Source of the DNA: Raja brachyura
Lineage: Eukaryota
DNA length: 64,000 nucleotides
Direction of reading: 5' to 3'
Assembly (NCBI GenBank): GCA_963514005.1
Contig: OY740783.1
Coordinates: 99,014,001-99,078,000, forward strand
The position numbers were made by a program, and so were the translations under genes. The notes beneath the pieces were generated by a model. The model was not told the origin of the DNA, ran no database searches, and saw only the letters and a list, made by a program, of their open reading frames with translations. Positions 27,553-28,200 of the stretch are shown here, piece by piece; position 1 is the stretch's first letter; each line of letters begins with the position of its first letter.

Positions 27553-28200
27553 GCTGTACCTCAATGAACTGCACAGGTAGATGTGTTACCTGTGGTGGTC
27601 TAGCTGTACCTCAATGAACTGCACAGATAGATGTGTTACCTGTGGTGGTCTAGCTGTACCTCAATGTACTGCACAGGTAGATGTGTTACCTGTGTGGTCT
27701 AGCTGTACCTCAATGAACTGCACAGATAGATGTGTTACCTGTGGTGGTCTAGCTGTACCTCAATGTACTGCACAGGTAGATGTGTTACCTGTGTGGTCTA
27801 GCTGTACCTCAATGTACTGCACAGGTAGATGTGTTACCTGTGGTGGTCTAGCTGTACCTCAATGCACTGCACAGGTAGATGTGTTACCTGTGGTGGTCTT
27901 TTGTACCTCAATGTACTGCACAGGTAGATGTGTTACCTGTGGTGGTCTAGCTGTACCTCAATGTACTGCACAGGTAGATGTGTTACCTGTGTGGTCTAGC
28001 TGTACCTCAATGTACTGCACAGGTAGATGTGTTACCTGTGGTGGTCTTTTGTACCTCAATGTACTGCACAGGTAGATGTGTTACCTGTGGTGGTCTTTTG
28101 TACCTCAATGTACTGCACAGGTAGATGTGTTAGCTGTGGTGGTCTAGCTGTACCTCAATGCACTGCACAGGTAGATGTGTTACCTGTGGTGGTCTTTTGT
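27553..28200. repeat. Minisatellite, 13 units of 49-50 bp, overlapping the TRPM3 exon end and splice donor
   Basis: Unit tgtacctcaatgtactgcacaggtagatgtgttacctgtggtggtctagc starts at 27555, 27605, 27655, 27704, 27754, 27803, 27853, 27902, 27952, 28001, 28050, 28099 and 28149. Confidence 0.95.

Follow-up and report, generated by a model that had tools for sequence, protein, structure and literature searches.

A young donor-spanning minisatellite at a TRPM3 exon/intron border in Raja brachyura

In the window, the 64,000-nt stretch of DNA analysed here, the end of an 80-nt TRPM3 exon and the start of the intron behind it are repeated head to tail, as read on the minus strand. The exon/intron boundary falls within the first unit, copies of the donor follow in the intron and the copy number is unstable among relatives; the array is a donor-spanning minisatellite of the F7/CBS type, also called a 'mirage'. 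It is real, young and recent in origin. We consider it probable (roughly 0.7) that it is a passenger in its gene, that is, a young minisatellite derived from a tandem duplication across the TRPM3 exon/intron border, in which the extra donors are likely near-silent and the first donor likely wins. The layout is already known from F7, CBS, IFI6, LMNB2, PDGFA and the lancelet mirages, and the TRPM3 array is a further example of it.

Structure of the array

TRF reported the repeat with a period of 49, 13.0 copies, 94% matches and a score of 1148, the highest among the 34 TRF rows for the 64-kb window. The features of the array and of its first donor are the following:

27552..28195, minus strand: minisatellite of 13 units of 49-50 nt, each made of 11-17 nt of exon end and ~38 nt of intron start (TRF and unit alignment)
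28178..28186, minus strand: authentic 5' splice site, with 7 contiguous pairs to the 5' end of the genome's own U1 snRNA (U1 pairing)
28133..28133, minus strand: G>C at position +1 in the donor of unit 2 (GT>CT), the sole single-unit variant of the array (read from the assembly sequence)
27584..28087, minus strand: 11 intact donor copies, with the last exon-like base at 28085, 28036, 27987, 27937, 27888, 27838, 27789, 27739, 27690, 27640 and 27590 (unit alignment and U1 pairing)

Unit 1 (28195-28146) consists of the last 12 nt of the exon followed by 38 nt of intron. The exon-derived part of a unit is generally the last 11-12 exon bases, and in three of the 12 extra units (3, 4 and 7) five further exon bases stand in front, which brings it to 17. 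The motif CAG/GTAACA, the slash marking the junction, is present in 12 of the 13 units, and 11 of the 12 extra donors are identical to the real one. An earlier note, made from the sequence, had described a minisatellite composed of the exon end and its true donor, with additional exonic bases in some units and twelve extra donors, all intact apart from the nearest, in which GT is changed to CT; each of these points is borne out.

Seven of the 50 columns in the unit alignment are variable. Six of these are common to at least two units and comprise a 1-nt deletion (three units), a C/T column (two units), one three-state column and the second junction register with its 17 exon bases (three units, three columns). 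Since these six non-donor columns are shared among units, they fit ordinary repeat turnover. The seventh is the donor G>C, which is private to unit 2. The array contains no ATG at all, and a DNA search of the same genome that skipped common words found no copy of the repeat unit elsewhere.

Other repeats were seen in the window as well. The same intron holds, at about 27020-27310, a very high-copy interspersed repeat with a summed contig depth above 1 million in all four of four runs, which may be a cartilaginous-fish SINE. The region 31023-33273 is GC-rich and has several short tandem repeats around a run of N (32021-32189), and a 31-bp repeat with 4.5 copies and 94% matches lies at 55046-55182 in the large upstream intron region.

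Host exons and the stop codon

The array lies in the following gene context:

28184..28263, minus strand: 80-nt exon of TRPM3, corresponding to exon 3 in human, with its last 12 nt opening unit 1 (homology)
28180..28182, minus strand: in-frame TAA reached when the real donor is read through, AGG TAA (translation)
26627..26825, minus strand: next exon of TRPM3, 199 nt long; its final ATG is the start codon in human variants 1-8 (homology)
25054..25267, minus strand: the TRPM3 exon after that, 214 nt long and in frame (reading frame)
13666..13754, minus strand: precursor of mir-204, inside an intron further along TRPM3 (sequence match)

The 80-nt exon matches TRPM3 with an E value of 3e-10 versus 9e-8 for TRPM1, and for the 199-nt exon the values are 1e-30 and 4e-16, respectively. 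The three exons (28263-28184, 26825-26627 and 25267-25054) join into a single open frame, and later TRPM3 exons were located by their motifs near 22700, 20530 and 10980. Judging from reading frame and homology, the donor at 28184 appears to be the one in use. With the genome's own U1, every intact donor forms 7 contiguous pairs and a duplex of -8.0 kcal/mol, a value equal for the 12 donors. Expansion of the array has taken the intron from ~764 to 1358 nt.

Two further signals were observed around these exons. A second, weaker donor-like GT is found at 28154 and at the same position of every unit; its U1 duplex (about -5.8) is slightly stronger than that of the next exon's own donor (-5.0). The acceptor region of that next exon (26826-26850) is G-rich just 5' of the AG and looks weaker than the other two acceptors examined.

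Reading through the real donor gives AGG TAA, as the earlier note had stated, and the stop is codon 28 of the exon frame. It is included in the products of all 12 downstream donor positions, for which exons of 130-674 nt are predicted, and further TRPM3 exons lie downstream of it. By the usual rule, a stop ahead of later junctions makes a transcript a target of nonsense-mediated decay (NMD). The NMD prediction made earlier thus holds in part: the stop is premature wherever a transcript translates the 80-nt exon. In human TRPM3 variants 1-8, however, translation begins at the ATG with which the next exon closes, and this ATG is retained in the window. In transcripts begun there the extension would belong to the 5' UTR, so that the stop would not be premature, and for such human-type variants the prediction would not hold.

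Occurrence in related organisms and age of the array

Contigs of seven out of 21 available sequencing runs, from five organisms, A to E, were compared with the window (X1 and X7 from A, X3 and X4 from B, X8 from C, X11 from D and X13 from E). The array is present in five of the seven runs, namely those of organisms A, B and C with 0-2.2% flank divergence, and absent in the two runs of D and E. Run X1, which possibly derives from the source sample, has flanks identical to the window over 1424 of 1424 bases, and its contigs end at 28171 and 27597, the very positions expected from the array of the window. Run X7 comes from a separate study of organism A and has a depth of 2-5; its three array contigs show no differences and include the deletion-type junction. 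The flanks differ from the window at 13 of 1414 positions in organism B (X3, 0.9%), 31 of 1424 in C (2.2%) and 77 of 1321 in D (5.8%). In X3, X4 and X8 array contigs occur at several times the depth of the flanks.

No single contig crosses the whole array, and the exact number of 13 and the order of units rest on the assembly; that the array was inflated or invented there, a possibility raised in the earlier note, nevertheless has next to no probability, given the depth of the array contigs in B and C, the recurrence of the window's junction types in another study of A, and the precisely predicted contig ends in X1.

Contig depth and connections give a rough estimate of ~4 units in organism C, with in- and out-flows agreeing within about 12% (74% of the run was covered), and an equally rough but noisier one of ~10-11 in organism B. 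Organism D has a single unit: a 1374-nt contig of X11 joins 28147 directly to 27552. In X13 both of the two flank contigs end 8 nt beyond the donor in unrelated loose ends, and array depth is absent. We read organism E as having one unit with an insertion. The X13 contigs stop at 28176 and 27582, which are the same position of the unit, and one loose end is a short-repeat tail; an independent retroelement insertion, at the place where other relatives expanded the array, is likely. The comparison of array length across related organisms suggested earlier, made here with contigs and depth, thus yields a series of 1 (D), ~4 (C), ~10-11 (B) and 13 (window). Copy numbers from ~4 to 13 in three organisms, together with the absence of the array in two relatives, fit drift.

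A hairpin over the donor was also considered:

28166..28188, minus strand: predicted 8-bp hairpin over the donor, with arms 28188-28181 and 28173-28166, repeated in every unit and weakened in unit 2 (folding)

An example of an RNA hairpin that sequesters a donor is that of tau exon 10. Here the predicted pairing reaches 0.96 in folding, but the stability is not exceptional when compared with shuffles (RNA z -1.1, with 28 of 200 shuffles folding as well, and -1.3; DNA z -0.7), and in organism E the insertion splits the hairpin. A conserved regulator of this kind was therefore rejected. A weaker T form of one arm is found in organism E and in the last units of organisms B and C; speculatively, the stronger form with the C base may be derived and may have aided slippage.

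Probable origin of the array and its possible bearing on splicing

On the reading that we prefer, a duplication of ~50 nt, taking in the exon end and the intron start, would have occurred once organism D had split off but before organism C did so. The array would then have grown by slippage or unequal exchange. The second register (three units) probably arose through a 3-nt match common to exon and intron, and a 1-nt deletion type (three units) would have appeared besides. The spliceosome would define the 80-nt exon by the most upstream donor, as the F7 experiments suggest, and the downstream donors would be used rarely if at all. Any leak from transcripts that translate the 80-nt exon would be removed by NMD, and copy number would be expected to have little effect. 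The dominance of the first donor is assumed here because F7 minigenes spliced from the upstream donor only. That evidence comes from mammalian minigenes and non-quantitative RT-PCR (PMC1557585).

In favour of a passenger array are the single-unit state in organism D and the differing unit numbers in A, B and C. A recent origin is, however, also compatible with the array having an effect. A small leak past the real donor is plausible because IFI6 and CBS also use their nearest pseudo-donors (PMC1557585). Reads of the ABCA7 VNTR use intronic donors that lead to premature stops (PMC13747324). Most suggestive of all is the change in unit 2, which counts against a silent array: the sole single-unit variant strikes the GT of the nearest copy, which echoes CBS.

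This change can be read in another way, which we regard as rather unlikely although it is the best of the alternatives. The nearest copy would have competed with the real donor and produced stop-containing mRNA, the G>C at 28133 would have been favoured as a silencer, and the array would be a mild burden and not a regulator. The change takes the U1 duplex from -8.0 to -1.3 kcal/mol, and the only private variant among 13 units sits at +1 of the donor closest to the real one. Use of the unit-2 position would yield the exon of 130 nt, a normal size. For human CBS (Yang et al. 2000, PMID 11186895; Lievers et al. 2001, PMID 11528503), a substitution in the second repeat reportedly prevents alternate splicing. 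In IFI6 and CBS the pseudo-sites used are those closest to the real donor (PMC1557585).

Several observations count against such a repair. The change is one base in one assembly, possibly an error or a private allele. The CT base was not seen at 28133 in the contigs listed from the examined runs, of which X7 has no cover of unit 2. In organism C, the contigs over the donors of the first three units show either no differences or ones assigned to other places by the contig connections, and the flows are balanced (74% of the run); we infer that the nearest copy keeps its GT there. Organism B weighs neither way: in neither of its two samples does a contig lie on unit 2, but rare variants drop out of contigs, and the flows leave about one copy unaccounted for. 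By a naive estimate, the chance of a private substitution striking the nearest copy's GT is 0.3% and any copy's GT 4%, but both were calculated after the site was known. Edge units, moreover, escape homogenisation, and a private variant is therefore more to be expected close to the edge.

The G>C also forms a branch-point-like 5-mer 18 nt 5' of the AG at 28113 (28113-28135). Together with the real donor this AG would define a 71-nt intron and a 28-nt frameshifting exon; the pyrimidine tract is poor.

A wider version of the same idea is more doubtful still. It holds that the nearest pseudo-donor competes, that GT>CT is a selected repair paralleling human CBS and that, as a general rule, no copy other than the one adjoining the true donor has to be disabled. 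On this view the relatives, some repaired and some not and with unit numbers of 1, ~4, ~10 and 13, would make up a natural series in which an NMD leak lowers TRPM3 mRNA while sparing the intronic mir-204.

We consider it very improbable that the array is a regulated set of poison donors, in which the number of copies determines how much TRPM3 pre-mRNA goes to NMD and so tunes the channel level against mir-204, as the earlier note had proposed. The idea draws on the facts that every downstream donor takes in the stop, that 11 of them pair with U1 as the real donor does and that unit number varies among relatives, and effects of repeat length on splicing are documented in humans. Conservation, however, ends at about 2% divergence in the runs examined: the array is missing in D at 5.8%, and E lacks the array and has an insertion 8 nt beyond the donor, so that the conservation expected of a poison element is not found. 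In the F7 minigenes, copy numbers from 1 to 12 brought no change. Transcripts begun at the downstream ATG would meet no premature stop. No feature links the array to mir-204, which lies four exons downstream on the same strand and is tied to it by the shared host transcript alone. Neither the tuning of TRPM3 splicing by copy number nor the uncoupling of mir-204 output thus finds support. Copy number would matter little for a passenger array, and the finding would gain in importance only if RNA revealed a leak that depends on copy number and affects TRPM3, which in humans is a channel linked to eye disease.

Comparison with known systems

Among the matches listed in the literature searches, no account of this TRPM3 repeat was found. 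What it adds to the known cases is a dated origin, with a one-unit ancestor and graded copy numbers, and a disabled nearest donor resembling that of CBS; it is also a neat test case for first-donor preference outside mammals.

The closest counterpart is the 37-bp VNTR in intron 7 of human F7, minigenes of which spliced from the first donor only (Borensztajn et al., 2006; PMC1557585). Sequential knock-out of donors moved splicing to the next copy, and variation from 1 to 12 monomers made no change in these experiments, which were done in mammalian cells with non-quantitative RT-PCR (PMC1557585). Both arrays have a first unit spanning the border, identical donor copies in the intron and varying copy number. 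In F7 there are 5-9 units, each containing 4 exon bases, whereas the 13 units of the TRPM3 array contain 11-17 exon bases and the second donor is disabled; donor use has been tested in F7, while the TRPM3 array is known from its DNA.

In intron 13 of human CBS a 31-bp VNTR repeats the exon end and the donor 15-20 times (PMC1557585; for the repeat notation, PMC2630376), and in both CBS and IFI6 the nearest one or two pseudo-donors are used beside the real donor (PMC1557585). The second-repeat substitution reported for CBS resembles the unit-2 G>C of the TRPM3 array. The cases differ in that two pseudo-sites are reported as used in CBS, whereas the TRPM3 change is known from one assembly.

The minisatellites of IFI6 (6-16) intron 2, LMNB2 and PDGFA intron 4 reiterate a donor 10-25 times (PMC1557585). 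They share the intronic donor reiteration with the TRPM3 array and behave in two ways: IFI6 uses the two nearest copies as well, whereas in LMNB2 and PDGF the authentic donor is used exclusively (PMC1557585). In human ABCA7 the intron 18 VNTR ranges from 12 to 440 copies and is disease-linked; reads from its intronic donors carry premature stops, and splicing could not be correlated with length in that study (PMC13747324). Like the TRPM3 array it is a repeat at a donor, with intronic donors leading to premature stops; unlike it, the VNTR is described as adjacent to the donor, and it is far more variable and linked to disease.

Outside vertebrates, the lancelet 'mirage' minisatellites of Adh3 and of the globins BflGb6 and BflGb9 seem to be spliced normally, as suggested by RT-PCR, and their edge units escape homogenisation (PMC3087553). 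The TRPM3 array belongs to the same class and differs from them in that its origin is dated from close relatives.
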